From positions 1,000,019 through 1,064,018 of the forward strand of contig JAHFKK010000001.1 of the NCBI GenBank assembly GCA_023245335.1: a stretch of 64,000 bases of DNA. The letters are read 5' to 3'. This DNA is from Candidatus Gottesmanbacteria bacterium (GTDB lineage: Bacteria; Patescibacteriota; Microgenomatia; UBA10105; UBA927). The position numbers were made by a program, and so were the translations under genes. Shown one piece after another: positions 708 to 37,690 of the stretch; the first letter of the stretch is position 1; every line of letters begins with the position of its first letter. The notes beneath the pieces are model-generated. The model worked only from the letters and a program-made list of their open reading frames with translations. It was not told where the DNA came from and ran no database searches.

Positions 708-2051
708 TCAATAACGTTCGGGAACCGGAAATTTTGCGGTCAGTTCGGTCACTTCTTTCGCGATCCGCTGAATAGTTTTGTCGGCGGGTAACTCTTTTTT
801 CATTCTGATAATGAATGCTGCCCGCTCTTCTTTGTTCTCCGGCAAACGAATATCTTTTACAGACGAAATAATCTCCGTTATCCACCCGCCTATGAGCTTC
901 ATCTCTTTCTCTTTCATTCCTCTCGTCGTGATCGCGGGAGTTCCCAACCGAATACCGGAAGGATAGACGGATGTCCCGTTGTCAAAGGGAACCGTATTGC
1001 GGTTGACGACGATATTCGCGTACTCCAAGGCCCAGGCGACAACCCACGCTGAGGCGCCGGATGACCGGAGATCGATTAATACCAGGTGTTTATCCGTGCC
1101 CCCTGACACCACATCCAACCCTGCCTTCATAAACAGCCCGGCGAGTATCTGTGCATTTTTTACGACTTGCTTCGCGTACGCGGAAAATGCCGGAGTTTTT
1201 GCTTCTCCGAGAGCGACTGCTATTCCTGCGATCGTATGTTCGTGCGGCCCGCCCTGAATGCTCGGAAATACCGACTGATCTATAGCGGATGACAGCTCTT
1301 TTTTCGAGAATATCATGGCGCCCCTCGGACCGCGAAGCGTTTTGTGCGTCGTCATCATGACGACATCTGCATAGGGAAACGGCGACGTATTCACGCCACC
1401 CGCAATAAGCCCAGCTTCGTGGGATACGTCAGCGAGGTAATACGCGCCGACACTGTGGGCAATACCGGCCATCCGTTTGTGATCGATTTCCCTTGGATAC
1501 GCAGTGCCACCGGATATAAGTAATTTCGGCTTTACTTCTTTGGCCTGTTTCTGAATCTCGTCATAATCAAATACCCGTGTTCCTTTGTCGACGTGATAAA
1601 ACGTGACATCCCAAATTTTGGCGACAAGCGTCACTTTTTTCCCGGGAAGTTGCCACCCATGGGACAAATGCCCGCCGTCAGGCAAATACATAGATAATAT
1701 TCTTTCTCCCGGTTCCAATAGGGCCGCGATGACGGCAAGATTTGCAGGACTCCCGGAAAGCGCCTGGACATTGACGCCCCATTGGTCAGGATCAAGCTGA
1801 AAAAGCTCAAGCGCACGCTTTTTACAAAGGCTTTCCAGCTCATCCACGACACTATTTCCCTGATAATATCGCTTTTTCGCCTGCCCTTCGGCGTATTTGT
1901 TGATAAATACCGACCCTACTGCCTCCCGGACGGCCTGACTGGTATAGTTTTCCGAAGGAATCATCTCCAAAACTTCCTGCTGGCGCTTGGATTCAGCTGT
2001 GATAAGTACTGCTACTTGCCGGTCGGATGTATTTATTGCCATGTATGACAA
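708..2051 (-). CDS. glyA: Serine hydroxymethyltransferase
   Basis: 447 aa. N-terminal MIPSENYTS, a PLP-lysine region (HKTLRGPRG) and overall length are typical of SHMT. Confidence 0.9.
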   Translation of the reverse strand: MSYMAINTSDRQVAVLITAESKRQQEVLEMIPSENYTSQAVREAVGSVFINKYAEGQAKKRYYQGNSVVDELESLCKKRALELFQLDPDQWGVNVQALSGSPANLAVIAALLEPGERILSMYLPDGGHLSHGWQLPGKKVTLVAKIWDVTFYHVDKGTRVFDYDEIQKQAKEVKPKLLISGGTAYPREIDHKRMAGIAHSVGAYYLADVSHEAGLIAGGVNTSPFPYADVVMMTTHKTLRGPRGAMIFSKKELSSAIDQSVFPSIQGGPHEHTIAGIAVALGEAKTPAFSAYAKQVVKNAQILAGLFMKAGLDVVSGGTDKHLVLIDLRSSGASAWVVAWALEYANIVVNRNTVPFDNGTSVYPSGIRLGTPAITTRGMKEKEMKLIGGWITEIISSVKDIRLPENKEERAAFIIRMKKELPADKTIQRIAKEVTELTAKFPVPERY

Positions 2052-3118: not shown

Positions 3119-3709
3119 TTAGCCACTCTTCGTAATTGAGCTCACCTCACAGCTATTTTTCGTGTCGTCAAAGACGAACTTGTAGCCTCCGGCGAGCGGG
3201 ATCGCGACCGTGCGGCTGGTCGGAAAATCTATGGGCAGTCCCAGATATTTCATAGTCACAAACCGCATCGGATCGCCGTGCGTGACGACCAAGACTTCCT
3301 TTCCCAAGTACTCACGCCGCTTTTCCTCTATAAATCCCGCCATCCGCTCTGCCAATTCCCCCATGGATTCAGCTCCTCTGGAGAGATATTTGGGGGTGTA
3401 GGAAAGCTCTCCGTTGGTCGCGTCAAAAAGGTTCATAGACGCTCCCTCCGCGTGGGTCAGCACCTCGAGCAGACGGTCATCGAATTGTACCGGCAGATGG
3501 AGGGCCGAGCTCAAAATTTCCGCAGTCTCGCGCGTCCGCAAAAGCGGACTGCTGTAAATAGCTCCCACATGCTTATCCCGGAAGTACGGCGCGAGTAATT
3601 CTACCTGTTCCCGCCCGCGGGAAGACAGCGGGTAACCCGGAGACCTCCCCGGATACATATATCCCGGATTGTCGTACTCTCCGTGGCGGACAAGATAGAG
3701 CGTGGTCAT
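3119..3709 (-). CDS. Histidine phosphatase family protein (phosphoglycerate mutase-like)
   Basis: N-terminal LYLVRHGE with RHG catalytic histidine motif, 196 aa. Confidence 0.8.
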   Translation of the reverse strand: MTTLYLVRHGEYDNPGYMYPGRSPGYPLSSRGREQVELLAPYFRDKHVGAIYSSPLLRTRETAEILSSALHLPVQFDDRLLEVLTHAEGASMNLFDATNGELSYTPKYLSRGAESMGELAERMAGFIEEKRREYLGKEVLVVTHGDPMRFVTMKYLGLPIDFPTSRTVAIPLAGGYKFVFDDTKNSCEVSSITKSG

Positions 3710-4819
3710 TTAGATAATGATCTTTTTTTTACGAAGAACAGCAAGAATTTTTTCGTGAATGTCTTCTTTGGAAAGAATTTTTCCTTCCTCCGCACACTCT
3801 ATGAGCGCCCAGTTTTTACGCGTTTTGGCCAAAGATAGATACATTGCTTCAGATGCCTTTCTATGGGTGAGATCGCTTTCCAATATGTCGCTTCTGGCAC
3901 CCAAATATGCGCGGTCGCCTTTCTTTTTCGTGAGCTCCATCCCGATTTGCCACGGCACGTGGAGGTAGATAACGACATCTTCCCGGGGAATTTTGTGTAC
4001 TTTGTACTCCAGCTCGTCTATCCAATCCAAAAATTCAGTGCGTTTATCCTCCGGGAGGCGCGCGCCCTGGTGTGCCATATTACTCGTCGCATAGCGGTTA
4101 CTTATGATGACTCCCCCGTGCGCAAGCCACATATCCATCTCCTCTTTGGCGGACGCACGATCCAATGCATACGCGAGCGAAGCCAGGTACGGCGAGACGT
4201 TGTCCCCGAATTCACCGGCGAGGAACCGTCCGGCTATCTTGCCGTGAAACGAACTATAATATCGCGGGAAATCAAATCCCTTCACCGGAATTTGGTGATC
4301 TTTGAGATAGTGTGTCAGGAGTTCCGCCTGCGTCGTCTTGCCGGATCCGTCGCCGCCGTCTATGACAATAAGCATTCCCCGGCGCTTCCTCTCGACATCT
4401 ACCTGCTCCAAAAAGTGTTTGAGGATAATGGGCAGACCTTCTTCATCATAATGTTCCAAAAATAAATGATCAGAAGGATTACCGGTGATCATGGCGGAAA
4501 GTTCATTGACCGCATCTTTGTAAAACATCGCCAATACGGGTTTATGATGCGTGAGCGCGTACACGATTTCTCCGCCGACGCCGCTACTGGGCTTGGTCAC
4601 TTCGGCAACGACACAATCGGCTTCGTCTATAGCGGTTTTCTCGCGCTGGAAGATCTCTTCGGCAGACCGCGCGGCATCTTTTTCGAGTTCGTGGTGATCC
4701 AGAATCTGTTCACCGGAGGTCAATGTATGCCCCAGTGTCTTGAGGTTGTCGATAATTGCTTTTTCCTGTACGAGATAATCGCCGTTATTTGTCGTCGCCG
4801 CCGTAAAATATATTTTCAT
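3710..4819 (-). CDS. tmk: Fusion protein: N-terminal nucleoside 2-deoxyribosyltransferase/Rcl-like domain plus C-terminal thymidylate (dTMP) kinase
   Basis: The C-terminal half has the Tmk P-loop IVIDGGDGSGKTTQ and lid region. The N-terminal ~140 aa (MKIYFTAA...GGEIVYAL) resembles the NDT/DNPH1 flavodoxin-like fold. Confidence 0.75.
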   Translation of the reverse strand: MKIYFTAATTNNGDYLVQEKAIIDNLKTLGHTLTSGEQILDHHELEKDAARSAEEIFQREKTAIDEADCVVAEVTKPSSGVGGEIVYALTHHKPVLAMFYKDAVNELSAMITGNPSDHLFLEHYDEEGLPIILKHFLEQVDVERKRRGMLIVIDGGDGSGKTTQAELLTHYLKDHQIPVKGFDFPRYYSSFHGKIAGRFLAGEFGDNVSPYLASLAYALDRASAKEEMDMWLAHGGVIISNRYATSNMAHQGARLPEDKRTEFLDWIDELEYKVHKIPREDVVIYLHVPWQIGMELTKKKGDRAYLGARSDILESDLTHRKASEAMYLSLAKTRKNWALIECAEEGKILSKEDIHEKILAVLRKKKIII

Positions 4820-5487
4820 GTTCTCTTCATGTATCCTAGCATATCCGCGACTTCGTAGACGGTAGGCAATGTGACATCCGCGACTTTTCCCGTCGTTTCG
4901 CTCCAGACAAGGCAGGTACGCATACCGAGTATATGTGCCGGCACGAGATCTACCGGTTCCCTATCTCCGATCATCATATGAGCGCCCGCAGGAAGCCCGG
5001 TTTCCTTCATGATATATCGGAATCCCTTCTCGCTTGGTTTGGTCTCTCCGACGACCTCTGATGTCACGATCTTCTCAAAAGTCGAGGGGTCGAGCCCGAT
5101 AATCTTCAGCCCTTTCGCGACCGACTCCTGCGTTCCGTTGACCAGCATGAAATGCCGGTATCGGGAAAGAGCCCGAAACATACCGGCAAGTCTGGCATCG
5201 GGCTTCAAGTACTTCGCATAGTCAACAGCTGCTGCCGTCTCTATCGCTGAGGCTGTATTAGAAATTTTGGCGATGATGGATACGGTCTTGGTACCGCTCG
5301 GAGTGATCACTTTATAAACTTTATAAAATTCTTCACTCGCTTTCTTCTCGGACCAGCCGGTATGCTTCATGATTACCCGTATCTCACCCGCCCGGATTTC
5401 ATCCCATAACGCGAGTTTTTGGCGGTAGAGTGTCCCGTCAAAATCCCAAACGATGATCTGAACGTCCTGAAACAGTGTATGCGGCAT
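4816..5487 (-). CDS. HAD-superfamily hydrolase
   Basis: N-terminal motif I DFDGTL, 223 aa. Overlaps tmk by 4 bp, suggesting an operon. Confidence 0.7.
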   Translation of the reverse strand: MPHTLFQDVQIIVWDFDGTLYRQKLALWDEIRAGEIRVIMKHTGWSEKKASEEFYKVYKVITPSGTKTVSIIAKISNTASAIETAAAVDYAKYLKPDARLAGMFRALSRYRHFMLVNGTQESVAKGLKIIGLDPSTFEKIVTSEVVGETKPSEKGFRYIMKETGLPAGAHMMIGDREPVDLVPAHILGMRTCLVWSETTGKVADVTLPTVYEVADMLGYMKRT

Positions 5488-5496
5488 AAATAGACG

Positions 5497-6132
5497 CTAC
5501 GATAAAGTGCGGAGTTTCATGCGAACCTCATGGACGAGTGTCACGCGTGCTTTGGCACTTTTTATAATATTAAGCTCATCCGTGACCACCTTCAATACGG
5601 GAATATCATTATCTTCGGCAAGCCATTTGTGATTGAGCATATCCAGAAGCTCCAAATATTTCATCGTGATGTGACGTTCATATCCTCGGCCGCGGGCGTC
5701 GATACGATGTGCAAGCTCGCGAATCGACGTCTCGAGGTAAATGATGAGATCCGGTTTGGGGAAATACGGTTCAAATGAACGATAAATTTTCTGGTACAAC
5801 CGCCACTCACTTTCGTCCATATTGCCTAGGACGTGCTGTGCCTTGGCATAGGAAAACGCATCCTCCTGGATCGGTGTATCCAGTACGACCGGCCGCACGA
5901 CAAGCATATTGCGCGTTTCCAAGATCTGCGAAATTTTTTCCATGAGAAAGAACGTCTGCGAATGAAATGCCCATCGTTTCATGTCCGTATAAAATCTCGG
6001 GAGAAACGCATTTTCCCCGAAATTTTCCTCGATGAGCCCGAATCGGAACTCTTTGGCGAGCAATCTCGAGACCGTGGTCTTCCCGCTTCCCATGGTTCCC
6101 ATGACGGTAAGATAGAATAATTTCTTCTTCAC
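5497..6132 (-). CDS. Deoxynucleoside kinase (dNK/dCK/dGK family)
   Basis: P-loop GTMGSGKTT, the ERS-like motif (here ETSIRE) and ~210 aa length are typical of deoxynucleoside kinases. Confidence 0.75.
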   Translation of the reverse strand: MKKKLFYLTVMGTMGSGKTTVSRLLAKEFRFGLIEENFGENAFLPRFYTDMKRWAFHSQTFFLMEKISQILETRNMLVVRPVVLDTPIQEDAFSYAKAQHVLGNMDESEWRLYQKIYRSFEPYFPKPDLIIYLETSIRELAHRIDARGRGYERHITMKYLELLDMLNHKWLAEDNDIPVLKVVTDELNIIKSAKARVTLVHEVRMKLRTLS

Positions 6133-6158: not shown

Positions 6159-7883
6159 ATGAGAGCAAGAAAGACGAGGAGCGCGTGGATCGAAATTATT
6201 TTAGGCAGTATTCTCCTTATCGCTACATTTTTACGTTTGTGGCAATTGGGATCTGTCCAACCCGGTTTGGCAAATGACGAGGCAGGCATTATCTATAGTG
6301 CATACTCCATCTGGAAAACAGGGCGCGAGCCGGCAGGCAAATTTTTACCCACTTCTATACAACTCGACAATTCATTTTCCCCCGTATACATCTATATAAC
6401 CGCGCCATTCGTAGGTCTCCTCGGCTTATCCCCGTGGGCAGGAAGGCTTCCATTCGCATTAACTGGAATCATGAGCGTGCTTCTTCTCTATTTCATTGTC
6501 AAAAAACTTAGCGACAACGATATCGTGGCATTAGGTGCTGCTGGCATCTTGGCACTTATCCCTTGGCATATATACGTTTCCCGCGCGGCGTTCGACGCTA
6601 ATTTTGCACTCGTCTTCTTTTTGGCAGGAATATATGCATTTCTTACATCTCAAAACAAACGGGTTAGGTCAATCCTCTGGTCACTCCTTTGGTTTTTTCT
6701 CGCGTTTTATAGTTATCACGCAACCAAACTATATTTCGTATTACTGCTTCCGACTCTCATCCTCATCTATTGGAAGTCACGAACTACCATACAGCGTATA
6801 GTCTTTATCCTCGGTACAATTCTCATCCTCTGCTCGTATGTGATTGTCCTCAAGACAAATGGACCGAATACACGAGCCGATGTTTTGATTTGGCAAAACA
6901 TGGACCAGTATAGTACCGAAGTTAATTGGCAACGCGAAAAATCTACCCTACCCGAAGGCCTTCGACCCGTATTCTCTAATAAAGTAACCGTAGCGGTACG
7001 CAAAGCAACCGAAACCTATCTAGAGGCGTTCTCAACAAACTATCTCTTTCTTTATGGAGAAACTGGTGCACTAACGAGTGTCTATGGCGGCATCATTAAC
7101 CAAGGACAATTATTTATTTTCATGCTACCATTTCTTATCTTTGGTGTCGTCGGTCTTTCAAAAACTTCAACGCGCACCAAACTACTTGTTACACTGCTTT
7201 TTTTATTCGCTCCAGTACCATCAGCCGCAGCATCGGACCGCACGCTTATTTTTCGAAGCTTCATGCTTTTAATCCCGCTTCCTATACTCGCGGGCTACGG
7301 CATTAACGAATGTATTATGTGGCTCAATACACAACGAAGCATCACAAAATGGATTGTTGTAGCGGGATACAGCATCTTTATTATAATCACACTTTGTTCA
7401 TATATTGCACATCTGTGGTACCGATATCCCGTCTATGGCGCAGAACGATGGTTTAAAAGCAGCACAGATCTCAGTATCTATGTACGAGATCATCATACAG
7501 ACTACTCTCGCGTAATCATTGTTCAATCCGGTTCCATGTTCCTATTTCAATTCGGTATATACGCTAAAATAGATCCAATCATAATACAGCGGGCTTGGAA
7601 CGCCAGACCACGAAGTGTCATAGACAATATCGTCTTTGCTGAATCTCCGTCATGCCCACGGATAACCCTCCCCACACGAGAAACCGCGTCATTGACAAAC
7701 CTGCTCCTCGTATGGCCGGATAATTGCGCAAATAGTTTGCTATCCACGCTGCCCCAAGTTTATACAATCAGGGAACGTGGCGAGCCTCTACGCTCCATAT
7801 GGCGAATGTATTCGCTACCAGCTAACACAACCTTCCAAACGAATTATCCGATGGATTTTTTCAGTCTTCCGACGAACCAATGA
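6159..7883 (+). CDS. GT39/GT83 (PMT/ArnT-like) polytopic membrane glycosyltransferase
   Basis: 574 aa with about 11 TM segments. The N-terminal loop carries the DE motif (NDEAGIIYSAYS) typical of ArnT/PMT GT-C enzymes. Confidence 0.7.
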   Translation: MRARKTRSAWIEIILGSILLIATFLRLWQLGSVQPGLANDEAGIIYSAYSIWKTGREPAGKFLPTSIQLDNSFSPVYIYITAPFVGLLGLSPWAGRLPFALTGIMSVLLLYFIVKKLSDNDIVALGAAGILALIPWHIYVSRAAFDANFALVFFLAGIYAFLTSQNKRVRSILWSLLWFFLAFYSYHATKLYFVLLLPTLILIYWKSRTTIQRIVFILGTILILCSYVIVLKTNGPNTRADVLIWQNMDQYSTEVNWQREKSTLPEGLRPVFSNKVTVAVRKATETYLEAFSTNYLFLYGETGALTSVYGGIINQGQLFIFMLPFLIFGVVGLSKTSTRTKLLVTLLFLFAPVPSAAASDRTLIFRSFMLLIPLPILAGYGINECIMWLNTQRSITKWIVVAGYSIFIIITLCSYIAHLWYRYPVYGAERWFKSSTDLSIYVRDHHTDYSRVIIVQSGSMFLFQFGIYAKIDPIIIQRAWNARPRSVIDNIVFAESPSCPRITLPTRETASLTNLLLVWPDNCANSLLSTLPQVYTIRERGEPLRSIWRMYSLPANTTFQTNYPMDFFSLPTNQ

Positions 7884-7997
7884 CACTGGAATCAAAAATA
7901 GTCAGTTGCGTGACATGACGATTTGACACCACATGACCTAATGTATAGCATACGAGTTGCAAGGAGCACATTTACAGGGAGCGGAAACTGGAAATTT

Positions 7998-8165
7998 TTT
8001 AGCGTGTGGCCCCGGTCACGACACAATCGGACCGTGGGATACGAGGAAGGCGTAAGCGAAACTATCTGCGGGTACGCCTCGGTTGCACTCTCAACCGCAA
8101 TCCGGATGAAAAACCCAACCGTAAGGCTGGATATAGATCAACCGGTTATGAGTCCGCCTCTCTAG
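7998..8165 (+). ncRNA. glmS ribozyme (glucosamine-6-phosphate-activated self-cleaving riboswitch)
   Basis: Found 150 nt upstream of the glmS ATG. It aligns to the conserved core AGCG...ACGAGGA-GGCG-UAAGCGAAA-CUGCGGGUACGCCU-CGGUUG...CAACCG...CCGUAAGG (Rfam RF00234: GACGAGGA..UAUCGAAU..GGCGGAUGCCUCC..CGGCUG..CAGCCGUAAGG). Confidence 0.55.
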
Positions 8166-8314
8166 ATCATTCTTACAAATTTACAAACAAAGGGCAGCAC
8201 ATAGCTTGTTCTGTCTTTAACTACGTTTATTAGGTGTGTCACGTATCATGTATCAATGTGTCACGCTCACATTCCTGACACTTGAGACCTGACGCCCATG
8301 ACACTATATATCTT

Positions 8315-10117
8315 ATGTGTGGAATATTCGGATACATCGGTCACAAAACAAACGCTCCGACGATCGTCCTTGAAGGACTCAAACGTCTCGAGTATCGCGG
8401 CTACGACTCCTGGGGAGTTGCCGTGGTGCCGGAGGGAGACGCCGAAAACATTCTCGTCAAGAAAAAGGCAGGAAAAATCGGCGCCGCGACCGTAACGAGC
8501 ATGCCGAAAGGGACACTTGCGTTCGGACATACCCGGTGGGCTACCCACGGCGGAGTGACGGACGTGAACGCCCATCCGCATCTCGACTGCACCAAAACCA
8601 TTGCAGTCATCCATAACGGGATCGTCGAAAATTACGAAGCACTCAAGGAAATGCTCACGAAAGAAGGGCACCACTTCGTATCCCAAACAGATACGGAAAT
8701 CATCGCGCATTTAGTGGAAGAAAATCTTAAGGCCATGAAGCCCGCCATTCGGGACGCCCAACCTGCTTTTTCCAAAGCGGTACAAAAAGCGTTTAATGCT
8801 CTCGACGGGCTTAACGCGATTATCCTTATAAACACCACGTCACACGAGATGGTGGCCGCAAGAAACGGCTCACCGCTTGTCGTTGGATTCGGTGACGGAG
8901 AAAATTTTCTCGCAAGCGATCCTGCGGCACTTCTCCCACATACCAAGCAAGTGCATTATCTGGAAGATGATGAGATGGTCATCGTGAGACCGGATGCCAT
9001 CCATATCTTTAACGCGAGGACCGGCGAACGGGTGCGGCCGCGGAAACAACTTCTCACGTGGACCGAAAAAGACGCGGAGAAAGGACAGTATCCCTACTTC
9101 ATGCTCAAAGAAATTTACGAGCAGCCCGGTCTTATGAGCGAAATTGCATCAGAATCGACGGAACAAGCTAAAGAATTGGCAAAGCAATTCGCTACTGCCT
9201 ACCGCGTATACGTCGTCGGAGCCGGCACATCCGGTCATGCCGCGCGGGCCGCATCGTATTTGTTTTCGGATATCTCCGCACATCTTATTAACTGGGGTAT
9301 CGCAAGCGAATTTGATCATCGGCTAAACGTGATACCGGAAAAAAGCCTAGTGGTAGCACTATCGCAATCGGGAGAAACGATGGATCTTATGGAAGTAGTG
9401 AAAAAAGCAAAGGCGAAAGGGATTGGTGTCGTTTCTATCGTCAACGTGGTGGGTTCTTCCCTATGGCGTATGGCCGATTTCCGTATGCCTATCGGAGCCG
9501 GACCGGAAAAAGGAGTGGCATCGACCAAGGCATTTACGTCAAAAATAGCGCACCTTATCCTTATCGCGTATGCAATGAAAGGAAACATCAGTGATGGACA
9601 AAAACTGCTCATACGGGCCGCCAAAAGCGCCAAAGAAGCGGTAAGCGAATCAAACGTCAAGCGTATCAAAGCGCTTGCGGCGAAGATGAAATCGGTCGAA
9701 CATATGTTCGTCGTGGGTAAGGGTATCTCCTATCCGGCAGCGCAGGAATGCGCGCTCAAGATAAAGGAAATATCCTATATCCATGCGGAAGGCGTCGCGG
9801 CAGGCGAACTCAAGCACGGCCCCCTAGCGCTCGTCACCAAAGGGACGCCATGCATCGTCATCGCGCCCAATGATGAGACCTATCGTGACGTCCTGGGAAG
9901 CGCGATGGAAATGAAAGCGAGAGGCGGTCATATCATCGGGTTTTCATATAAAAATGATGAGGTCTTTGATGATTACATACCGGTCGCCGATGCGGGTGAG
10001 GCGACGATTATCCCGAACGTCATCGTGGCCCAGCTCCTCGCCTACTATCTGACGCTTGAACGGGGCTTTGACCCCGACATGCCGCGAAATCTCGCCAAAA
10101 GCGTAACCGTGAAATAA
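8315..10117 (+). CDS. glmS: Glutamine--fructose-6-phosphate aminotransferase
   Basis: MCGIFGYIG N-terminal nucleophile Cys, two SIS domains, C-terminal ...KSVTVK. The upstream Met at 8282 would put the catalytic Cys at residue 12, so 8315 is preferred. Confidence 0.93.
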   Translation: MCGIFGYIGHKTNAPTIVLEGLKRLEYRGYDSWGVAVVPEGDAENILVKKKAGKIGAATVTSMPKGTLAFGHTRWATHGGVTDVNAHPHLDCTKTIAVIHNGIVENYEALKEMLTKEGHHFVSQTDTEIIAHLVEENLKAMKPAIRDAQPAFSKAVQKAFNALDGLNAIILINTTSHEMVAARNGSPLVVGFGDGENFLASDPAALLPHTKQVHYLEDDEMVIVRPDAIHIFNARTGERVRPRKQLLTWTEKDAEKGQYPYFMLKEIYEQPGLMSEIASESTEQAKELAKQFATAYRVYVVGAGTSGHAARAASYLFSDISAHLINWGIASEFDHRLNVIPEKSLVVALSQSGETMDLMEVVKKAKAKGIGVVSIVNVVGSSLWRMADFRMPIGAGPEKGVASTKAFTSKIAHLILIAYAMKGNISDGQKLLIRAAKSAKEAVSESNVKRIKALAAKMKSVEHMFVVGKGISYPAAQECALKIKEISYIHAEGVAAGELKHGPLALVTKGTPCIVIAPNDETYRDVLGSAMEMKARGGHIIGFSYKNDEVFDDYIPVADAGEATIIPNVIVAQLLAYYLTLERGFDPDMPRNLAKSVTVK

Positions 10118-10392: not shown

Positions 10393-11622
10393 ATGAATAA
10401 GCGTATTGCCATGATTTCCGTGCACGAGTGCCCGCTCGCATCCAGTGAAGGCAAAGAGCGCGGAGGCATAAATGTCTATGTGTACGAACTATCCAAAGCC
10501 CTAACGAGGCTCGGGTGGCAAATCGACATGTACACCCGCATGCAGGACTCTGTGAATCCCGCGGTCGTCCAGGTGAACGATAATGCGCGCGTCATCCACA
10601 TCCCTGCCGGCCCAAAGACGCCGATTCCCAAACAACAGGTCATCGGACATCTCGATGAATTTTCACGCAATATGGCCGAGTTCATCCGTGACGACGGAGC
10701 AACCTATAATTATATTCATGCACACTATTATTACTCGGGAGTAGTCGGCCGATATATAGCCGATAATTCGCAGTATTCGATACCTCTTGTCATGACATTT
10801 CACACCTTAGGACTACTCAAACAGCTAACGACTACGAATCATGCCGATGATCCAAAGGAGCGCATCCTCATAGAAAAAGAATTAGTTGCGGCAGCCACAA
10901 AAATTATCGCGACGAGTGACAATGACGCCACATACCTTAAAGCACTGTATGACGCTCCATCCGCGCGGATAGCGATCATCCCTCCGGGCGTCGACACGAG
11001 ACTTTTCCACAATGCCCCCAAAGAAGAGGCGAAACAAGCTATAGGCGCAGACCCCACGCATCGGATCATCCTTTCCGTCGGTAGGATTGATCCGGTAAAA
11101 GGATTAGATGTGTTGTTATATGGGCTCAAACTCATGATTAACGCACACCCCGAATACGCACAAAATACCTGTTTATGGATTGTCGGCGGCGATGTAGAAG
11201 AAAAACGCCGTGAATGGAATTCCGAACAAGCCAAGCTGGAATCCATACGCGAGACGCTCGGACTCCGGACGACGGTCAAATTCATCCCGGCGCAATCGCA
11301 GGAAAAACTCCCTGATTATTATAATGCCGCAGACGTCTTAGTCATGGCCTCGCACTACGAGTCTTTTGGGATGGTCGCTTTGGAGGCCTTAGCCTGCGGG
11401 ACACCGGTTATCGCCACAGACGTTACCGGTATCTCCCCGCTTGTGAAGGCGTTCCCGAAAGGACATATCATATCCGCCAACAATCCGATTCTCCTTTCAC
11501 AAAAACTCGCGCACGTCTTATCGCACCCGCCATTGGTGCAGGCAGATACCCAAAAAATTATTTCGTCTTTGGATTGGTCAGAAACCGCCAAAAAAGTGAT
11601 CTACGTCTACGAAGCATTGTGA
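10393..11622 (+). CDS. GT4 family glycosyltransferase (MshA/sucrose-phosphate-synthase-like)
   Basis: N-terminal GGINVYV(YE)L and a C-terminal E-x7-E region (ESFGMVALEALACGTPVIA). Confidence 0.8.
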   Translation: MNKRIAMISVHECPLASSEGKERGGINVYVYELSKALTRLGWQIDMYTRMQDSVNPAVVQVNDNARVIHIPAGPKTPIPKQQVIGHLDEFSRNMAEFIRDDGATYNYIHAHYYYSGVVGRYIADNSQYSIPLVMTFHTLGLLKQLTTTNHADDPKERILIEKELVAAATKIIATSDNDATYLKALYDAPSARIAIIPPGVDTRLFHNAPKEEAKQAIGADPTHRIILSVGRIDPVKGLDVLLYGLKLMINAHPEYAQNTCLWIVGGDVEEKRREWNSEQAKLESIRETLGLRTTVKFIPAQSQEKLPDYYNAADVLVMASHYESFGMVALEALACGTPVIATDVTGISPLVKAFPKGHIISANNPILLSQKLAHVLSHPPLVQADTQKIISSLDWSETAKKVIYVYEAL

Positions 11623-11626: not shown

Positions 11627-11935
11627 TTAGAGCGAGTTAGCTTGTTTTTGTAGCGCATCCATACTGGCGACTCCCCCGTCATCCGCTGATGCGTCAAACT
11701 GCTGTCGAAGATCCGCAACCGGATTAGCGGACTGCAGACTTCCGAATCCGACGGTCGGTTTGCCGGCCGTCGCCGACAAAGACGGAAGAGGAGCAGGGAC
11801 GGTATTTGCCGGTAAAGAGGACTCGGGAGATGCCGCGGGGGCCGCAGACATCACCCGCAAAATAACAACTCCCGCAATCACAAGACCCGCGATAGTGAGC
11901 GGGATAGCGATGACAAATAATGATGATTTTTTCAT
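11627..11935 (-). CDS. Small membrane-anchored hypothetical protein
   Basis: 102 aa with an N-terminal TM (LFVIAIPLTIAGLVIAGVVIL) and an Ala/Pro/Ser-rich tail. Confidence 0.4.
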   Translation of the reverse strand: MKKSSLFVIAIPLTIAGLVIAGVVILRVMSAAPAASPESSLPANTVPAPLPSLSATAGKPTVGFGSLQSANPVADLRQQFDASADDGGVASMDALQKQANSL

Positions 11936-11938
11936 ATA

Positions 11939-12769
11939 TTATGGTGTCGGCGTCACTTCTACAGGTTTCGTCAATGATTCTACATCGTCTAAAGCGACAC
12001 CGACCGCTTTGCGTGCTGCCACAAATGCCGCATAGAGAGAGCCCAGCTTCGTTTTGGCATCCCCGATTGCCTTCCCGGCATCCTCTCCCGCACTCGTTTC
12101 GCTGGTTACCGGAAGCACGGTCGAAATACTGCCGGTCAAAGTAGTCAAAAGGGTCTGGGCGGTCGCTACTTTTGCCTGGGCGGCGGTGATATCGGAGTCG
12201 ATACCGGACACGTCTTTTCCCTGCGCCTTGAGCGCTGCTGCGGAAACGGAAATCTTATCAAGAAGCGCTGTCATAGATGCAAGCTTTTTTTGCATGGACG
12301 TCAAAGCATTGGTAACCGTCGACCGGAATTTGTCCGCCACGGAAAGTACTCTTTGTTTCTTCCCGGAATCTTTAAACGCCTCTACCTTTCGAAGGAACCC
12401 CGTATGAGATGCTTCATCTTCGCCCGCACGCTTATGGAGCGCATTGGTAAACTCATCTTCGAGCGTCCGCACCTTTGCGTCTGTTACCTTGAGAATTTTC
12501 GCCTCCCGAGCGGCACGGTCCTCCTGGAATGCATCCTCCTCTTTTTTGGTCAGTACCGGTGCCAGAACCCGGAGCGTCGGCCTTGGGTTTTCTCCTCCAC
12601 GACCACGACCGGAACCGGAATGCGTATCCGCTTTGAGTTCGGGAGGACGCTCTGCGGAACCGGTAGAACTAACTACTTCCTGAGTTTGGTCGCCCAAGAC
12701 GTTCGGCCGCATCATGGGGTGACCGAGACCTAAACCAAGAAGAATAAGACCGAAAAACTGATCGAGCAT
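11939..12769 (-). CDS. Secreted/membrane-anchored coiled-coil hypothetical protein
   Basis: 276 aa with an N-terminal hydrophobic segment, then low-complexity and coiled-coil-like sequence. Confidence 0.45.
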   Translation of the reverse strand: MLDQFFGLILLGLGLGHPMMRPNVLGDQTQEVVSSTGSAERPPELKADTHSGSGRGRGGENPRPTLRVLAPVLTKKEEDAFQEDRAAREAKILKVTDAKVRTLEDEFTNALHKRAGEDEASHTGFLRKVEAFKDSGKKQRVLSVADKFRSTVTNALTSMQKKLASMTALLDKISVSAAALKAQGKDVSGIDSDITAAQAKVATAQTLLTTLTGSISTVLPVTSETSAGEDAGKAIGDAKTKLGSLYAAFVAARKAVGVALDDVESLTKPVEVTPTP

Positions 12770-12851
12770 TGTATCCAGTATGGAAAGAATCGGAGTGGAT
12801 TGTCAAGTATATTACAATTGCAGAATTAATGACCAAGAATTGAACATGACG

Positions 12852-13250
12852 TCACCTCGTAATCCTTAATTCTTTTCTCAAGAGGTAATGCAGCGTATTC
12901 GTACGAATTTTGGTTTTCTGGACGGTCCATCCCAACGTATGTGCTAAAGCCTCGACCGATGAAGAGCTTTGTTCTGCTTCAAAGAGTTTTTGTTCGCTCG
13001 GAGGTATCTTGGCAAGTGCACGCCTGAATCCTGGGTGATTCGTGATCGTCTCAATCGCTCTTGCCCTCCTCTTTTGGGATTGTGTCGGGACAGTTGGTAG
13101 GCCGTCCGCAAATATGCGTGCGACTGCCGTACGTCTTTGTGTCGCACTGCGCGCACGCAACTCTCTTTCTGCACGCTCTGCTTCAAGGATAATCTGTTGG
13201 AATACGCTTGGCCCTGCGGGTGATTTCGACAATCTCCGTTCGTCATCCAT
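12852..13250 (-). CDS. Hypothetical protein
   Basis: 132-aa basic protein. First gene of a co-directional run of three. Confidence 0.35.
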   Translation of the reverse strand: MDDERRLSKSPAGPSVFQQIILEAERAERELRARSATQRRTAVARIFADGLPTVPTQSQKRRARAIETITNHPGFRRALAKIPPSEQKLFEAEQSSSSVEALAHTLGWTVQKTKIRTNTLHYLLRKELRITR

Positions 13251-13259: not shown

Positions 13260-14789
13260 TTATAGTTCTTTGTTCGCCGCTGGGTCCTGATTATACTTCT
13301 CAGGTTTGCCGAGTTTGATGTAAAACTCCGCCCGCTGCAATTCGGTGCCGATATAGATAAGGTGACTTGGCAAAACGAGGTACTCACCGATATTCACCAT
13401 TTCAATGTAGAGTTCCATAGCGGTCTTTTCCCGCCATTCCTTGAGAAGCAGTCCGCCGTTTGGTGCATAGAGTTTGACGACAATTTCCCATTCGGTATCC
13501 GGGGGCTTCGTAGCGTATTTGGTAGGTCTTCCGACACTATTTTTGTCCGTTTGCTCGACCGAAACGACCACGTTCCCCCGCGGATCATCTTCAAACATCT
13601 GCCTGCTCGTGTAGCCTAACTCTTTGTCATAATTTTCTTTCAGGATCTTTTCGACCAACTCGTAATCATCGCTATAGATGTGCGCGCTATGGGTGATCAT
13701 GACGAACGCCCCCATGGCGACCCCCGACTCGTCGCAAATAAGCTTCTGTAATTTCCGAAGGCTAAATACGTTCCTGGGCCAGCCGTGCACCATATCCTGA
13801 CTCCGAAAATGCGTCGTCATAAAAAGTCTGCCGTCCTCTATGCTGCAGAGAATCTGTGTGAGGCACGGCGTGTCCCCTTTGTTGACGACCGACCAGTCTT
13901 CTTTAATTTTGGCGGTAAATGCAACCATCTTTTTCGAAAACGGTCGTGTTTTGATAAGGTCTATGATGTTTTGGATCTGATCGACGCCGTCATGATCGCG
14001 CAGTCTCTGCCCATACGTATATGCGATGCCGGGAATCTGTTTGGCGGAAAGTACCTGCGGATAATACGAAAGCAAATCTTTTTCCGAAAACGGGAAAAAG
14101 TGCGGCAGATATGGCTTGTCCGGATCCTCGTCATAGACGACCGCCATGACGTTCAGGAACTCTTTGAGTTCATTTTCCTGCGTGTAGCGGGTCGTTTTGT
14201 TGCGGCCGTACCGCATGATATTCATAAGGATTTTGAGCCATGCTTGCGCCGCGGTCTTCCCGTGTATGCGAACACCGATCTGTTCGCTGGGATACGTAAA
14301 CGGTTTGGGGCGACTGGTCGGAAACTTTTTGGGCTCGGTAAATGGCGCGGGCGGGACGGCCCCCAAATCACTGACTGTTTTCCTCAAAAGATCCGGAGAT
14401 TTGCCGCGGAGATTGATGACCTCTACGGATGTGCGGAAAAGGTCTATGGCATCCTTACCTATTTCCTTCTCTATCTGCCCGCCTTTCTCGTCCCCGATAA
14501 TGAAAAAATTCTCGTCGACGCCATTTGCCATAAGCGCCATAAGCGCCTGGCCGCTTCGGGAAAGGTCAGCGCCCCACAAAACGATCTTCCGTACATGCGG
14601 GTTGGCATAGACGTTTCTGATCATTGCCGAAATTCCCGCGGACGAATACAGGTTACCGATGGCGCAATAGTTCTCGTCTTTCAGAAGGTTCGCGACCACC
14701 TGCCGTTCCGTCCACATGATTGCAACCCCGACGGGATTCTTGGGGTCTTTGACATGCAACACTTGTCTATAGAGAATCGGCCAATCCAT
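13260..14789 (-). CDS. thyA: Thymidylate synthase (ThyA, archaeal-type PCL active site) with ~200-aa N-terminal extension domain
   Basis: The C-terminal ~300 aa carries ThyA folate/dUMP motifs including the catalytic Cys in TPCL (archaeal-type rather than PCH). It is adjacent to dcd. The N-terminal domain is unassigned. Confidence 0.65.
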   Translation of the reverse strand: MDWPILYRQVLHVKDPKNPVGVAIMWTERQVVANLLKDENYCAIGNLYSSAGISAMIRNVYANPHVRKIVLWGADLSRSGQALMALMANGVDENFFIIGDEKGGQIEKEIGKDAIDLFRTSVEVINLRGKSPDLLRKTVSDLGAVPPAPFTEPKKFPTSRPKPFTYPSEQIGVRIHGKTAAQAWLKILMNIMRYGRNKTTRYTQENELKEFLNVMAVVYDEDPDKPYLPHFFPFSEKDLLSYYPQVLSAKQIPGIAYTYGQRLRDHDGVDQIQNIIDLIKTRPFSKKMVAFTAKIKEDWSVVNKGDTPCLTQILCSIEDGRLFMTTHFRSQDMVHGWPRNVFSLRKLQKLICDESGVAMGAFVMITHSAHIYSDDYELVEKILKENYDKELGYTSRQMFEDDPRGNVVVSVEQTDKNSVGRPTKYATKPPDTEWEIVVKLYAPNGGLLLKEWREKTAMELYIEMVNIGEYLVLPSHLIYIGTELQRAEFYIKLGKPEKYNQDPAANKEL

Positions 14790-14791
14790 GA

Positions 14792-15397
14792 TTATTTTTC
14801 CTGGGCAATTCTGCTTGCCAGAGGTGTTTTTTGCCCGGCGTATTTCGCCGTTTTTTTCTTACTGTACGGCACCTGGGCAGGAGAACTTAATTCTTCAAAC
14901 GTCATACTGCAAATCCGCATCCCCGGATAGAGGGCGACCGCCATACGGCCTAAATTTCCAAGCTCCATGACGACGACGCCATTCCACCCGGGCTCGAATA
15001 TTGACGCGGTCGAATGGACAACGATTCCGAGCCGTCCGAGACTGGATCTTCCTTCTAAGCGACCAATAAGATCATCTGCGATAGATATGGATTCAACGGT
15101 TGTTGCTAACACGAAATCACCCGGTTGCAGGATAAACGCTTCCCCTTTTGTGAGATTGACTTCCCGCATCATGTCTTTGGAAAGCTTAGGATTCGTCGGG
15201 TCTATATAGGCCATCGTGCTATGGTTGAAAACCCGGAATTGTCTTCCGAGCCGGAGATCGACCGAACAAGAACCAAGCTGTGTCTTCGCATCTATCTTCG
15301 GGGTTATGACAATTCTCTTGGAGAGAACGGCTTTTTTGATATCCCTATCGGACAAAATCATGGGCCTAAGTATAGCCAATACGCGTGCATGAGACAA
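14792..15397 (-). CDS. dcd: dCTP deaminase
   Basis: MILSDRDIKKA N-terminus, ~200 aa trimeric dUTPase-like fold, and the VDLRLG motif. Confidence 0.88.
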   Translation of the reverse strand: MSHARVLAILRPMILSDRDIKKAVLSKRIVITPKIDAKTQLGSCSVDLRLGRQFRVFNHSTMAYIDPTNPKLSKDMMREVNLTKGEAFILQPGDFVLATTVESISIADDLIGRLEGRSSLGRLGIVVHSTASIFEPGWNGVVVMELGNLGRMAVALYPGMRICSMTFEELSSPAQVPYSKKKTAKYAGQKTPLASRIAQEK

Positions 15398-30669: not shown

Positions 30670-33144
30670 ATGTCAGTAATTGTATCATACGTGCGTATAG
30701 GGCCTCAATTGAAACTTCGCCTCGATGCTGTTACGCTAACGGGTATGTTTGACCGCTGGAAGCGATATCTTCCCGTTGGTATCATCATTCTTTTTTCTTT
30801 CTTCCTTTTCCGGAACTATTTTCTGAAAGGCCTGGTCCCGTTCCCGGCGAACTTACTGGTTGCGACATACGAGCCGTGGAGAAGTTATCCGGTGCCGGAA
30901 TATCCCAACGGTCCGCCGAATAAGCCCATGGGGTTTGACAACATCCGCATTTATTATCCTCTCAAAAAAGTAGCAATTGATCTCGTCAAACACGCGAAAC
31001 CTCCTTTGTGGAATCCATATAATTTCACCGGCAACCCGATACTCGCGACGTACCAGTCCGCGATATTTCACCCACTTTCATTTCTCTACCTCCTCCTTCC
31101 GCAAATCGATGCATGGAGTATTATCATCATCCTTCAGCCTATCCTTGCGGGACTTGCGATGTATGCGTTTCTTTCGGCATTGGAATTTTCGATGTCTGCG
31201 TGCCTATTGGGCGCCCTCACGTTTGCATTTTCCGGATTTTTCATCGTGTGGTGGGAAGAAGCCTTCATGTTCACCTACTCGGCATTATTCCTCCCGATCG
31301 CGCTTACCGCCGTTGAATTATTCCTCAAAAGCCGTCGCCGCATCTGGCTTGCCGTATTCGCACTGAGTCTTGCCGGTTCAATCGTATCGGGCGCATTCCA
31401 AATGACGTTTTATGTCTTCCTTTTTACGGCCGCCTGGATCACATACCGGCTGTGGCACGAAAAAAAGAAGTGGCAGTTTTTTGGGATGTTCCTGGGGGCA
31501 GGCATAATCGCCCTCCTTCTTGGAAGCGTTCATCTCCTCCCTAGCATGGAAGCATATTATCACTCCGCGCGTATATCCGCAGACGCCAAGTATATTTTTG
31601 ACGCGTACCTCCTGCCGCTTACACAGCTTATCACCCTCATCGCTCCCGACTATTTCGGCAACCCCGGCACGTATAACTATTTCGGATCAGGATTTTATCA
31701 CGAACGTATGATGTGGTTCGGCGTCGTGCCGCTTTTCTTTGTTCTCATGGAATTTATGCATCCGTCTCAAAAACGACATGCATTATTTTTCCGGATCGCA
31801 TTTCTGGTTACGCTTTCATTGGTCCTTGCTCTCCCCACGACATGGCTTCTCCTCTACTATCTCAAACTTCCGTTGCTTTCGACCCTGACCCCATCGCGCA
31901 TGATGATGCTGGTCACATTCTCGGCGGCGGTTCTTACCGCTTATGGCGTAGAAACATACTGGCAGGGAATCCAAAAACGGACGCTGGTCATAACAACGCT
32001 CCTCCTGGGAGCAAGCATTGCGGTCGCAGGCTTCTATCCTATCTACATCCATCATCTACAGCCCAAACTGACGATGTATTATATGGTGTCACTCCGAAAT
32101 CTCGTCATCCCGACGGCAAGTCTCGGCATCATCGTTATCACTCTTTTCGTGAGCCGGGTACATAAGCGACTCCGGCCGGTAGGTTTTGCTATCCTCACGG
32201 CGGTGCTACTCACCGGCAGCGTTCTGTTTGCGCAAAAATTTCTCTATTTTTCTGAACGGAGATTTATTTATCCGGCGACGCCAGTCCTTAGTGAATTGCA
32301 AAAACGCGCCGGGTTCGACCGATTTTGGACGTACGAGAATGGGTATATAGAAAAAAACTTCGCCACATACTATGGATTATTTAGTCCCGAAGGATACGAC
32401 TCCATCACCATCCGGCGGTACGGTGAACTATTGAGTTTCGCTGACTCGCACGGCGCCTCCATGACGTCTTCCCGTTCGGATGCGCTCATCCAGTCTACCG
32501 ACCATCTCAACAACATTCTCACCGATCCCTACAGGAAAAAACTTCTGGAGCTCCTGGACGTGCGGTATATCTTGCAACGGTTACTGCCTGACAGAAGCGA
32601 AAAAGCCGTATTGCCCGACCCTACGCAACTTCCGACTGTCTGGAAAGACAATACGTATGCAATTCATGAATATAAAGAGGCTCTCCCTCATGCTGCGTTA
32701 TATAGCTTGGTAGCGGTGATTCCCGACGGAAAAACAGAACTCACCGCCATGTTCGACACAACAACAGATATCCATACCCGTCTGTTTCTTGAACAAAAAC
32801 CGGAAGGATTAACCCTGAATCCCGAAGCAACAGGAACTGCTTCAATCACCGGTATACAACCGAATTCCGTCTCTATCCGGACGCAAACCACCGACGCCAT
32901 GATGCTTTTCCTTTCGGATGCATACTATCCGGGCTGGAATGCTTATATTGATAGTGTAAAAACTCCGGTGTATCGTGCGGACTATGCGTTTAGGGCCGTC
33001 GCAGTGCCCAAAGGAACCCATATAGTGATATTCAAATATGAGCCGCTGTCCTGGAAGTTAGGTCTCATACTATCGAGCATAGGAATAGTTTTCCTTGGAT
33101 TTCTCGTGCTAACAAAAAACATCACACAACTAAAAAAGAAGTAA
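30670..33144 (+). CDS. YfhO-family membrane glycosyltransferase (GT-C fold)
   Basis: 824 aa, polytopic. Conserved C-terminal YfhO signature DAYYPGWNAYIDSVKTPVYRADYAFRAVAVPKGTHIVIFKYEP. Confidence 0.8.
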   Translation: MSVIVSYVRIGPQLKLRLDAVTLTGMFDRWKRYLPVGIIILFSFFLFRNYFLKGLVPFPANLLVATYEPWRSYPVPEYPNGPPNKPMGFDNIRIYYPLKKVAIDLVKHAKPPLWNPYNFTGNPILATYQSAIFHPLSFLYLLLPQIDAWSIIIILQPILAGLAMYAFLSALEFSMSACLLGALTFAFSGFFIVWWEEAFMFTYSALFLPIALTAVELFLKSRRRIWLAVFALSLAGSIVSGAFQMTFYVFLFTAAWITYRLWHEKKKWQFFGMFLGAGIIALLLGSVHLLPSMEAYYHSARISADAKYIFDAYLLPLTQLITLIAPDYFGNPGTYNYFGSGFYHERMMWFGVVPLFFVLMEFMHPSQKRHALFFRIAFLVTLSLVLALPTTWLLLYYLKLPLLSTLTPSRMMMLVTFSAAVLTAYGVETYWQGIQKRTLVITTLLLGASIAVAGFYPIYIHHLQPKLTMYYMVSLRNLVIPTASLGIIVITLFVSRVHKRLRPVGFAILTAVLLTGSVLFAQKFLYFSERRFIYPATPVLSELQKRAGFDRFWTYENGYIEKNFATYYGLFSPEGYDSITIRRYGELLSFADSHGASMTSSRSDALIQSTDHLNNILTDPYRKKLLELLDVRYILQRLLPDRSEKAVLPDPTQLPTVWKDNTYAIHEYKEALPHAALYSLVAVIPDGKTELTAMFDTTTDIHTRLFLEQKPEGLTLNPEATGTASITGIQPNSVSIRTQTTDAMMLFLSDAYYPGWNAYIDSVKTPVYRADYAFRAVAVPKGTHIVIFKYEPLSWKLGLILSSIGIVFLGFLVLTKNITQLKKK

Positions 33145-37561: not shown

Positions 37562-37690
37562 TCCTTCCTCCCCCTCTCTATAAACAGAAGTAAATAGTAA
37601 TGAGTAAATAGTAAGTAGATTAAAAACAAAAACGTTTTCTTTCTATTCACTACTCACTATTTACTATTCACTCTTCCGTCCATAGAGAGG
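37562..37690 (-). repeat. ~128-nt palindromic expansion replacing 16S helix 40, built from a TAAATAGTAA-type repeat unit
   Basis: It lies between GGAGACCGCC and GAGGAAGG, where E. coli has the 15-nt h40 hairpin. It forms the stem ccctctctat...atagagaggg with internal tandem repeats taaatagtaaNgag. Confidence 0.7.

Follow-up and report, generated by a model that had tools for sequence, protein, structure and literature searches.

A thymidylate synthase homologue set between MtrA-like and DUF4346 domains in Candidatus Gottesmanbacteria and its relatives

Introduction

Few enzymes are as well understood as thymidylate synthase, an essential protein and a classic target of drugs. In the canonical bacterial form, ThyA, the Trp80/Trp83 region and the C-terminal tail clamp the p-aminobenzoate-glutamate part of folate, and the tail (residues ~220–264 in Escherichia coli) closes over the folate and shields the active site from water. 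In protozoa and plants, dihydrofolate reductase (DHFR), an N-terminal alpha/beta domain, precedes the synthase in a single chain of ~510–610 amino acids (DHFR-TS), and the methanogen-type proteins of family TIGR03283 are stand-alone enzymes of ~200 amino acids. In this study, we analyzed a 64,000-nucleotide stretch of Candidatus Gottesmanbacteria bacterium (GenBank assembly GCA_023245335.1, contig JAHFKK010000001.1, positions 1,000,019–1,064,018; hereafter the window), in which a single gene encodes a 509-amino-acid ThyA homologue whose short core lies between an MtrA-like domain and a PterinBD-DUF4346 domain. Judging from sequence, we favor with moderate confidence the reading that this gene is the organism's thymidylate synthase, using methylene-tetrahydrofolate, and that the accessory pair replaces folate-clamping elements absent from the mini core.

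The biochemistry and cofactor specificity of archaeal ThyA are poorly known (PMC9012536; PMC9931769). The sole purified methanogen enzyme was published, according to its title, as a "putative" thymidylate synthase. Reportedly, the Methanobacterium enzyme purified by Krone and colleagues in 1994 did partial reactions only. The namesake of the N-terminal domain, MtrA (PF04208; PDB 5LAA, 5L8X, and 8Q3V), is the cobamide subunit of the methyl-tetrahydromethanopterin:coenzyme M methyltransferase. The lower axial ligand of its cobalt is His84, held by Glu54 through a hydrogen-bond relay, and the corrin is contacted by Asn55 and Asn82; the "meander" (consensus GAIPF/YxEN) is its most conserved element, and a separate pocket for the nucleotide tail is formed by Tyr18, Lys52(N), Thr53, Gly57, Val61, and Asn64 (Wagner et al., 2016; PMC4915002).

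Results and Discussion

Architecture of the Fusion Gene

The gene is one uninterrupted open reading frame (ORF) with zero internal stops, in which three Pfam domains were recognized (Table 1). The first-pass annotation had described a ThyA homologue with an extra, non-DHFR N-terminal domain and a catalytic Cys within GDTPCLTQ. Pfam, NCBIfam, and hhalign agreed on the former, and the motif lies at residues 305–312 with Cys309 as the nucleophile. The core is smaller than the C-terminal ~300 residues then proposed: it covers residues ~171–392, as delimited by the match to TIGR03283 (residues 175–377) and by secondary structure, and the last ~110 residues form a third domain, PterinBD-DUF4346, that had been overlooked. 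The N-terminal ~200 residues, formerly left unassigned, do lack a DHFR signature; their size was overstated, since they comprise a domain of ~143 residues, assignable through homology to MtrA, and a 27-residue linker. Within the linker, P167 is invariant and S168 and E169 are at least 90% conserved (alignment A2); it has no regular secondary structure in the AlphaFold2 (AF2) model and leads into the first ThyA strand.

Table 1. Features of the fusion gene, its neighbors, and the catalytic residues mapped from E. coli ThyA (window coordinates).
Feature	Position	Strand	Evidence
Three-domain thymidylate synthase gene, 509 aa	13260..14789	minus	single ORF, three Pfam domains; stop codon 13260–13262
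MtrA-like Rossmann domain, residues 1–143	14361..14789	minus	PF04208; profile vs PDB 5LAA
Linker, residues 144–170, conserved P167-S168-E169	14280..14360	minus	alignment A2; AF2 model
Methanogen-type "mini" ThyA core, residues 171–392	13614..14279	minus	TIGR03283, PF00303, hhalign, Foldseek
Codon of catalytic nucleophile Cys309 (E. coli Cys146)	13863..13865	minus	gca on plus strand = TGC on minus strand
PterinBD-DUF4346, residues 399–505	13275..13595	minus	PF14251; conservation; AF2 domain model
Clade-specific disordered insertion, residues 415–431	13497..13547	minus	within first beta-hairpin of DUF4346
AGGA, ribosome-binding-site-like	14799..14802	minus	9 nt upstream of fusion-gene ATG, within 3' end of dcd
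dCTP deaminase (dcd), 189-aa product	14792..15361	minus	TIGR02274 E = 7e-61; gene caller
Nucleoside deoxyribosyltransferase-like domain + dTMP kinase fusion, 369 aa	3710..4819	minus	PF05014 + PF02223
Serine hydroxymethyltransferase (GlyA)	708..2042	minus	PF00464 E = 3e-152; NF000586 495 bits vs 335-bit cut-off
Y259 (E. coli Tyr94)			hhalign
K285/K286 (E. coli Arg126/Arg127)			hhalign; family consensus SRR
C309 (E. coli Cys146)			invariant in A2, at least 90% conserved in A1
R329 (E. coli Arg166)			hhalign
S330 (E. coli Ser167)			hhalign
D332 (E. coli Asp169, pterin-binding)			at least 90% conserved
N340 (E. coli Asn177)			invariant in core alignment A5, at least 90% conserved in A1
H370 (E. 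coli His207)			hhalign
Y372 (E. coli Tyr209)			hhalign

Distribution and Conservation of the Fusion

The first-pass annotation had named a frameshift joining two genes as the finding that would overturn it. No such joint was found, and the full-length architecture recurs widely. The identical protein is present in independent assemblies, on contigs of 12 kb, 341 kb, and 1.2 Mb, and the same architecture and length were observed across assemblies from NCBI, JGI, ENA, and Logan. More than 120 clusters at the 90% identity level, 77–100% identical to the window protein, are all ~509 amino acids long and share its three Pfam domains. When 1.84 billion representatives were scanned exhaustively with HMMER, 285 clusters at the 50%-identity level were returned (threshold E ≤ 1e-30), most of them 460–530 amino acids long with alignments spanning residues 2–502, and a scan with alignment A2 found a relative encoded in 363 GTDB species genomes. 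With this recurrence, and with the junctions conserved equally, an assembly or sequencing artefact that joined two or three genes has next to no chance of being the explanation.

Proteins 88–90% identical to that of the window come from metagenome-assembled genomes (MAGs) of Gottesmanbacteria, Microgenomates, and Patescibacteria. Named members belong to Microgenomates lineages, Parcubacteria/Paceibacterota, Chloroflexota, candidate division KSB1, DPANN Iainarchaeum/Diapherotrites, and Nanoarchaeota, and one 36%-identical member is located among archaeal ribosomal genes. With the fusion in 363 species-level genomes, much of the candidate phyla radiation (CPR) and the DPANN radiation appears to have its thymidylate synthase from this family. 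The source annotations vary among "thymidylate synthase," "DUF4346 domain-containing protein," and "hypothetical protein." Many MAGs with near-identical copies are titled "uncultured Gammaproteobacteria" or "uncultured Pseudomonadales" (e.g., loci L005, L008, and L044), labels that are almost certainly placeholders or wrong. A phage origin was also rejected: among the phage records searched by tblastn, none carried the three-domain form and none covered >54% of the protein.

Averaged over the diverse alignment, identity to the window protein was 33.1% for the MtrA-like domain, 33.0% for ThyA, and 32.9% for DUF4346, and near-invariant columns made up 7, 9, and 11% of the three, respectively. 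These nearly equal values indicate that the accessory domains are constrained as strongly as the catalytic core. Some members vary the arrangement. P0169 (Nanoarchaeota) has an extra C-terminal dCMP deaminase, a dUMP-producing enzyme, and in the metagenomic protein P0259 (862 amino acids) the MtrA-like domain is duplicated and partly degenerate. Another metagenomic protein, P0193 (837 amino acids), has the order MtrA-like–ThyA–DUF4346–ThyA–DUF4346, with Ser for the catalytic Cys of the second ThyA; it is a ThyA dimer in covalent form, one of whose sites is dead, and this tandem repeat shows ThyA and DUF4346 acting as a single unit in a dimer of the ThyA type.

A Methanogen-Type Core With Conserved Catalytic Residues

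The best curated match of the core was the methanogen ThyA family TIGR03283 (E = 2e-41, model positions 3–199 of 201). The two share a short core of ~200 residues, the absence of the canonical C-terminal tail and the P-C-L motif, whereas the window core is flanked by two further domains and belongs to a bacterium whose serine hydroxymethyltransferase (SHMT) is of the folate type. PF00303 (Thymidylat_synt) matched at 68.6 bits against a cut-off of 24.3 bits (E = 6e-19), and hhalign aligned the family core to E. coli ThyA residues 84–217 with a probability of 98.4%. Identity to canonical ThyA is ~23–25%, over the C-terminal two-thirds of the core only. The AF2 model of the full-length protein (pLDDT 86.5, pTM 0.75) was predicted by Foldseek to resemble TS-fold enzymes (E ~1e-13); because only this fold was matched, the search says nothing on the accessory domains.

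The mapped catalytic and dUMP-binding positions (Table 1) are all invariant or at least 90% conserved, and the cross-dimer Arg126/127 pair is kept as RR or KK in the fusion family. Fold and catalytic residues are thus common to the window protein and the canonical ThyA of E. coli, L. casei, and human (EC 2.1.1.45). The differences lie in the folate-clamping parts, since the mini core is without the Trp80/Trp83 region of E. coli ThyA and is predicted to end after helix K, at about residue 392, without the canonical tail of ~45 residues. DUF4346 was rejected as a diverged canonical lid (hhalign probability 0.08%).

The same fold serves other reactions. T4 dCMP hydroxymethylase, MilA, and phage dUMP hydroxymethylases obtain Foldseek or tblastn scores like those of true thymidylate synthases, and the first-pass annotation had offered a dUMP/dCMP hydroxymethylase as an alternative. 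The dCMP/CMP type (T4 gp42, MilA) would need Asp in place of Asn177, and Asn340 at this uracil-specifying position excludes it. That the gene encodes a dUMP 5-hydroxymethylase, in which hydration would replace hydride transfer and yield 5-hmdUMP, or another pyrimidine-modifying enzyme is, in our view, quite improbable. MilA and AfhB are among the top Foldseek matches of the full-length model, the best phage tblastn matches include the annotated dUMP hydroxymethylase of Bacillus phage SP-10, and the mini core is without the C-terminal lid that in canonical ThyA keeps water out. However, the family is cellular and widespread: it occurs in hundreds of genomes in a dTMP-pathway setting, beside dcd and tmk, with no full-length phage record, a deoxynucleoside kinase, an SHMT and the dCMP deaminase fused in P0169 belong to the same setting, and archaeal extracts synthesize dTMP from formaldehyde with modified pterins as one-carbon donors (PMC9931769). 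In addition, neither the window nor 80 loci related to the fusion gene showed a further thymidylate synthase, be it ThyX or canonical ThyA. We know of no reliable sequence discriminant between dUMP hydroxymethylases and thymidylate synthases.

The MtrA-Like Domain Keeps a Ligand Pocket

PF04208 matched residues 2–128 (E = 5e-10, 39.6 bits against a 25-bit cut-off), and a profile of 22 diverse N-terminal domains matched the MtrA crystal structure PDB 5LAA with E = 3e-25, at which the homology to MtrA is secure. TIGR01111, also an MtrA family, gave 46 bits, below its 249-bit cut-off. We mapped the MtrA residues by aligning Methanocaldococcus jannaschii MtrA with 52 diverse family members. At the position of His84, 36 members have Ser, nine Thr, four Gly, and three Ala, and none has His; the position of Glu54 is a gap in 35 and never a conserved acid. 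Asn55 and Asn82 are also lost, and the meander is shortened and not conserved. The nucleotide-tail pocket is different: Ser or Thr occupies the Thr53 position in 48 of the 52 (S49 in the window protein), Gly the Gly57 position in 51 (G52), Leu, Ile, or Met the Val61 position in 50 (M56), and Asn the Asn64 position in 46 (N59). Three conserved residues, W26 (invariant), Y48, and R58, are specific to the family.

The N-terminal domain thus has the Rossmann-like fold and the tail-pocket residues in common with MtrA, and is without His84, the Glu54 relay, the meander, the transmembrane anchor, and the mtr operon. In place of the anchor, ThyA follows, and no Mtr genes or mtrA-H operon were found among the window genes. 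The window protein looks soluble. As read from these residues, the domain keeps a ligand pocket, has lost His-on cobalt ligation, and does not qualify as an MtrA proper. Cobalamin probably plays no part, the ligand of its cobalt having been lost.

The loss of the ligand also bears on a MetH-like corrinoid methyl relay, in which DUF4346 would bind methyl-tetrahydropterin, the MtrA-like domain would carry a base-off/His-off corrinoid, and methyl-Co(III) would methylate the Cys-activated C5 of dUMP directly, with no dihydrofolate formed. For such a relay speak the true homology to MtrA, the conserved cobamide tail pocket and the Ser or Thr in 45 of 52 members at the His84 position, which we take to resemble a His-off corrinoid iron-sulphur protein. 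A 731-amino-acid neighbor with a C-terminal zinc-ribbon, similar to ribonucleotide reductase (RNR) and found in 13 loci, is by its sequence features a putative B12-dependent class II RNR, which would imply a corrinoid supply. Nevertheless, we consider the relay very improbable. The family has lost His84, Glu54, Asn55, and Asn82 together with the meander motif, DUF4346 (~90 amino acids) is unlike the known methyl-pterin-binding TIM barrels, and the equivalent of the pterin-binding Asp169 is at least 90% conserved in the core, which fits direct methylene transfer.

The retained pocket is a nucleotide-moiety pocket in MtrA, and this is consistent with a regulatory or architectural module, i.e., a nucleotide-sensing allosteric domain (for example, for dTTP or dCTP feedback) or an oligomerization scaffold, with no direct cofactor role. 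Such a role is unlikely in our assessment. It would suit a gene in a dNTP-metabolism operon, where Dcd and RNR are classically feedback-regulated enzymes, and the domain copy number varies in P0193 and P0259. On the other side, allosteric regulation is not known for ThyA, DUF4346 is found together with enzymes of pterins and not of nucleotides, and constraint equal to that of the catalytic core is unusual in a purely regulatory appendage. The residue pattern of the MtrA-like domain points more towards ligand or cofactor binding than towards the regulatory or channelling module that the first-pass annotation had suggested.

DUF4346 and the Pre-existing Two-Domain Module

PF14251 matched residues 433–502 of the full protein (E = 5e-8, 34.2 bits against a cut-off of 29.6 bits); the isolated window domain reached 39 bits, and all 31 diverse C-terminal domains matched, the best with E = 6e-25. 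The conserved motifs are DPRGN, SHxxYxGxELxxAE, and YxQD, in which D402, H476, and Q501 are invariant. In the AF2 model of the domain alone (pLDDT 84.8), three strands are accompanied by two to three helices. This model had no significant structural neighbor in PDB (best E = 0.56, TM < 0.3) or BFVD (best E = 0.065), and no sequence relative was found in PDB. The insertion at residues 415–431 corresponds to 98% gaps in the diverse alignment A1, with pLDDT < 50 at residues 418–423.

Two known families contain the domain. First, NF002128 ("tetrahydromethanopterin S-methyltransferase subunit A"), an NCBIfam model of 390 positions, was matched by the N-terminal domain at positions 139–258 and by the DUF4346 domains at positions 286–371 (E down to 9e-20). 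The order is that of the window protein, with the differences that DUF4346 follows the MtrA-like domain without an intervening ThyA and that ~138 further positions precede them; the window protein itself scored 72.9 bits against a cut-off of 568. Since NF002128 holds the pair contiguously, the pair pre-exists as a unit, and in the fusion family the ThyA core is inserted between the halves of this module. Second, DUF4346 forms the C-terminus (positions 417–497, E down to 9e-13) of TIGR00284, archaeal proteins of the MJ0301 type that resemble dihydropteroate synthase, which links the domain to pterin enzymes. TIGR00284 proteins, likewise pterin-handling enzymes, have a dihydropteroate synthase-like barrel instead of ThyA, and no MtrA-like domain was detected in them: none of 22 N-terminal domains matched. 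A protein search with one DUF4346 domain as the query returned only one stand-alone DUF4346 protein, 135 amino acids long, on a 3-kb contig. The literature that we searched contained no mention of DUF4346, PterinBD, or an MtrA-ThyA fusion, and the fusion is absent also from an archaeal fusion-census paper.

The separate existence of the pair raises the question of whether the fusion is a "Rosetta stone" for a two-component thymidylate synthase. The module would then be an obligatory partner of mini ThyA, which delivers or recycles the one-carbon cofactor without free dihydrofolate or FolA. Such a partner may be fused in CPR and DPANN and separate elsewhere, for example as the NF002128-type "MtrA paralogues." We regard the two-component enzyme as fairly unlikely. 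If true, it would also account for the partial reactions reported for the purified Methanobacterium enzyme.

Genomic Context and Folate Supply

As the first-pass annotation had stated, dcd lies directly upstream with a 2-bp gap: its TAA (14792–14794) is followed by 2 bp and the ATG of the fusion gene (14787–14789). The AGGA inside dcd, 9 nt before this ATG, suggests that the fusion gene would be translationally coupled to dcd. In a comparison of the monofunctional with the bifunctional type, the encoded Dcd matched E. coli Dcd with 1e-44 and the Mycobacterium tuberculosis dCTP deaminase-dUTPase with 1e-42. Among the 80 loci, dcd is upstream on the same strand in 48, Chloroflexota among them, and the recurrent neighbors are thymidylate kinase, deoxynucleoside kinase, thymidine kinase, a large RNR-like protein, a cytidylate-kinase-like protein, and NUDIX and HAD phosphatases.

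A deoxynucleotide salvage island (3119–6132, minus strand), 7 kb from the fusion gene, encodes a histidine phosphatase (His_Phos_1), a dTMP kinase fused to a nucleoside deoxyribosyltransferase-like domain, a HAD phosphatase, and a deoxynucleoside kinase. The dTMP kinase fusion is unusual in its own right; it matched NF005923 with E = 3e-38 and 131.3 bits, below the 193-bit curated cut-off. The adjacent dCTP deaminase belongs to the dUMP-supply pathway, and dTMP kinase catalyzes the step after thymidylate synthase.

The SHMT gene starts with the ATG at 2042 according to an exact protein look-up, not with the TTG at 2051 of the mechanical ORF. The best PDB relatives of its product are all folate-dependent SHMTs, and it is nearer to those of plants and animals (E ~1e-122) than to those of E. 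coli and Bacillus (E ~1e-100). Furthermore, adjacent genes for an fmt-like formyltransferase and a peptide deformylase lie ~9–10 kb beyond the right edge of the window (locus L085, 1–1090), and the presence of fmt gives the genome a 10-formyl-tetrahydrofolate-dependent enzyme. With a folate-type SHMT and the fmt-def pair, the organism most likely runs a folate one-carbon pool.

Directly downstream of the fusion gene, three ORFs without a Pfam or NCBIfam match (132, 276, and 102 amino acids) occupy 11627–13250 on the minus strand, the first beginning 9 bp after the stop. The 276-amino-acid ORF occurs only in close Gottesmanbacteria relatives (10–16 of the 80 loci) and the 132-amino-acid ORF in none of the 80. 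In 22 of the loci (L040–L080, e.g., L079 7206–8681), a PurF-like protein of ~490 amino acids, a glutamine amidotransferase joined to a phosphoribosyltransferase, is encoded near the fusion; the hosts of these loci are in general regarded as incapable of making purines de novo.

Proposed Reaction and the Question of Dihydrofolate

In the reaction proposed for a methylene-tetrahydrofolate-dependent synthase, the conserved residues suggest that Cys309 would attack C6 of dUMP and that Asn340 would read the uracil, while Asp332 would hold the pterin ring of the 5,10-methylene-tetrahydrofolate supplied by SHMT. Methylene transfer followed by hydride transfer would yield dTMP and dihydrofolate. The MtrA-like and DUF4346 domains probably provide the cofactor-binding and closing surface that the core is missing: the former would reuse the pocket that in MtrA holds the cobamide nucleotide tail, and the latter would contact the pterin.

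Several observations weigh against this proposal. The TIGR03283 score of 141.6 bits is below the equivalog cut-off of 174.55 bits. Residues 165–247, in the N-terminal third where the equivalents of Arg21 and Glu58 would lie, were not aligned to E. coli ThyA by hhalign; K198 (conserved) and E210 (invariant) are candidates for the two. Methanogen-type ThyA also occurs as a stand-alone protein that has neither the MtrA-like nor the DUF4346 domain, so the core has no intrinsic need of the module. "PterinBD" is a database name only, and the binding of pterin is putative. Finally, no DHFR was found within ~84 kb of the gene (the window plus 10 kb on each side, ~7% of the genome), a result compatible with a DHFR-independent mechanism.

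The search for a reductase can be specified further. Neither E. coli and L. casei FolA nor Thermotoga maritima ThyX gave a tblastn match in the window or the 80 loci, and no DHFR match (Pfam PF00186 or NCBIfam) was obtained in the window protein. A divergent DHFR in the N-terminal domain was rejected, as hhalign against E. coli FolA gave a probability of 0.26% and no DHFR family matched. Relative to DHFR-TS, the window protein is likewise a single chain, of similar length, with the synthase after an N-terminal domain, but this domain is MtrA-like and not DHFR, its homology implies no reductase activity, and there is an extra C-terminal domain.

These results raise the possibility of a DHFR-independent thymidylate synthase, functionally analogous to protozoan DHFR-TS or ThyX, with the MtrA-like and DUF4346 domains as a built-in redox unit. 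The unit would re-reduce the dihydropterin product or give hydride to the exocyclic methylene intermediate, so that FolA would be unneeded. The position of a Rossmann-type domain where DHFR stands in DHFR-TS, the accessory domains constrained like the catalytic core, and the absence of DHFR from the 80 loci and the ~84 kb of genome are consistent with it. Moreover, folA is present in only ~55% of CPR genomes, and thyA-positive, folA-negative lineages have been reported (PMC11974145). Both hosts of DUF4346, ThyA and TIGR00284, would release 7,8-dihydropterins. We nevertheless judge this form of the enzyme unlikely: there is no recognizable NAD(P)H or flavin motif, the hhalign probability against DHFR is negligible, the nearest homologue, MtrA, is no oxidoreductase, and stand-alone mini ThyA proteins do without the module.

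Other Features of the Window

The bacterial 16S rRNA gene (37218–39036, minus strand) contains a group I intron (38327–38573; Rfam RF00028, 73.5 bits), as is typical for the CPR; with the 88–90% identical proteins of Gottesmanbacteria, Microgenomates, and Patescibacteria, it marks the genome as that of a CPR bacterium. A row of five paralogous genes of the sulfatase family (PF00884, ~520 amino acids each), all but one on the plus strand and the remaining one on the minus strand, occupies 40748–49873, flanked by PAP2 phosphatases (40012–40815 and 52455–53036) and BacA (49886–50686). Such an expansion is unexpected for a genome of ~1.2 Mb and may be linked to lipid, teichoic-acid-type, or cell-surface modification. 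A glmS ribozyme/riboswitch (7990–8155, plus strand; RF00234, 53 bits) precedes a gene of the GlmS type with GATase and SIS domains (8282–10117, plus strand), an ordinary arrangement. With a PMT_2 glycosyltransferase (6159–7883) and a GT4 glycosyltransferase (10393–11622), the region is rich in cell-envelope glycosylation genes. Two YfhO-like membrane proteins (30670–33144, plus strand, 824 amino acids; 33779–36160, minus strand, 793 amino acids) flank a tRNA gene.

Conclusion

The enzyme belongs to a known family, and database annotation already reveals the architecture, while the role of the accessory module, conserved across CPR and DPANN, is unexplained in the literature. The core of a very well studied enzyme is accompanied here by two strongly constrained extra domains, one a cobalamin-protein fold minus its cobalt ligand and the other, DUF4346, without a solved relative. 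The role of the module would show how a minimal ThyA core binds folate, and also what DUF4346 and the "MtrA homologues" of non-methanogens do. The two-component enzyme, if true, would account for thyA-positive, folA-negative genomes, and DHFR-free dTMP synthesis in ultra-small symbionts, if true, would bear on their cofactor dependence on hosts.

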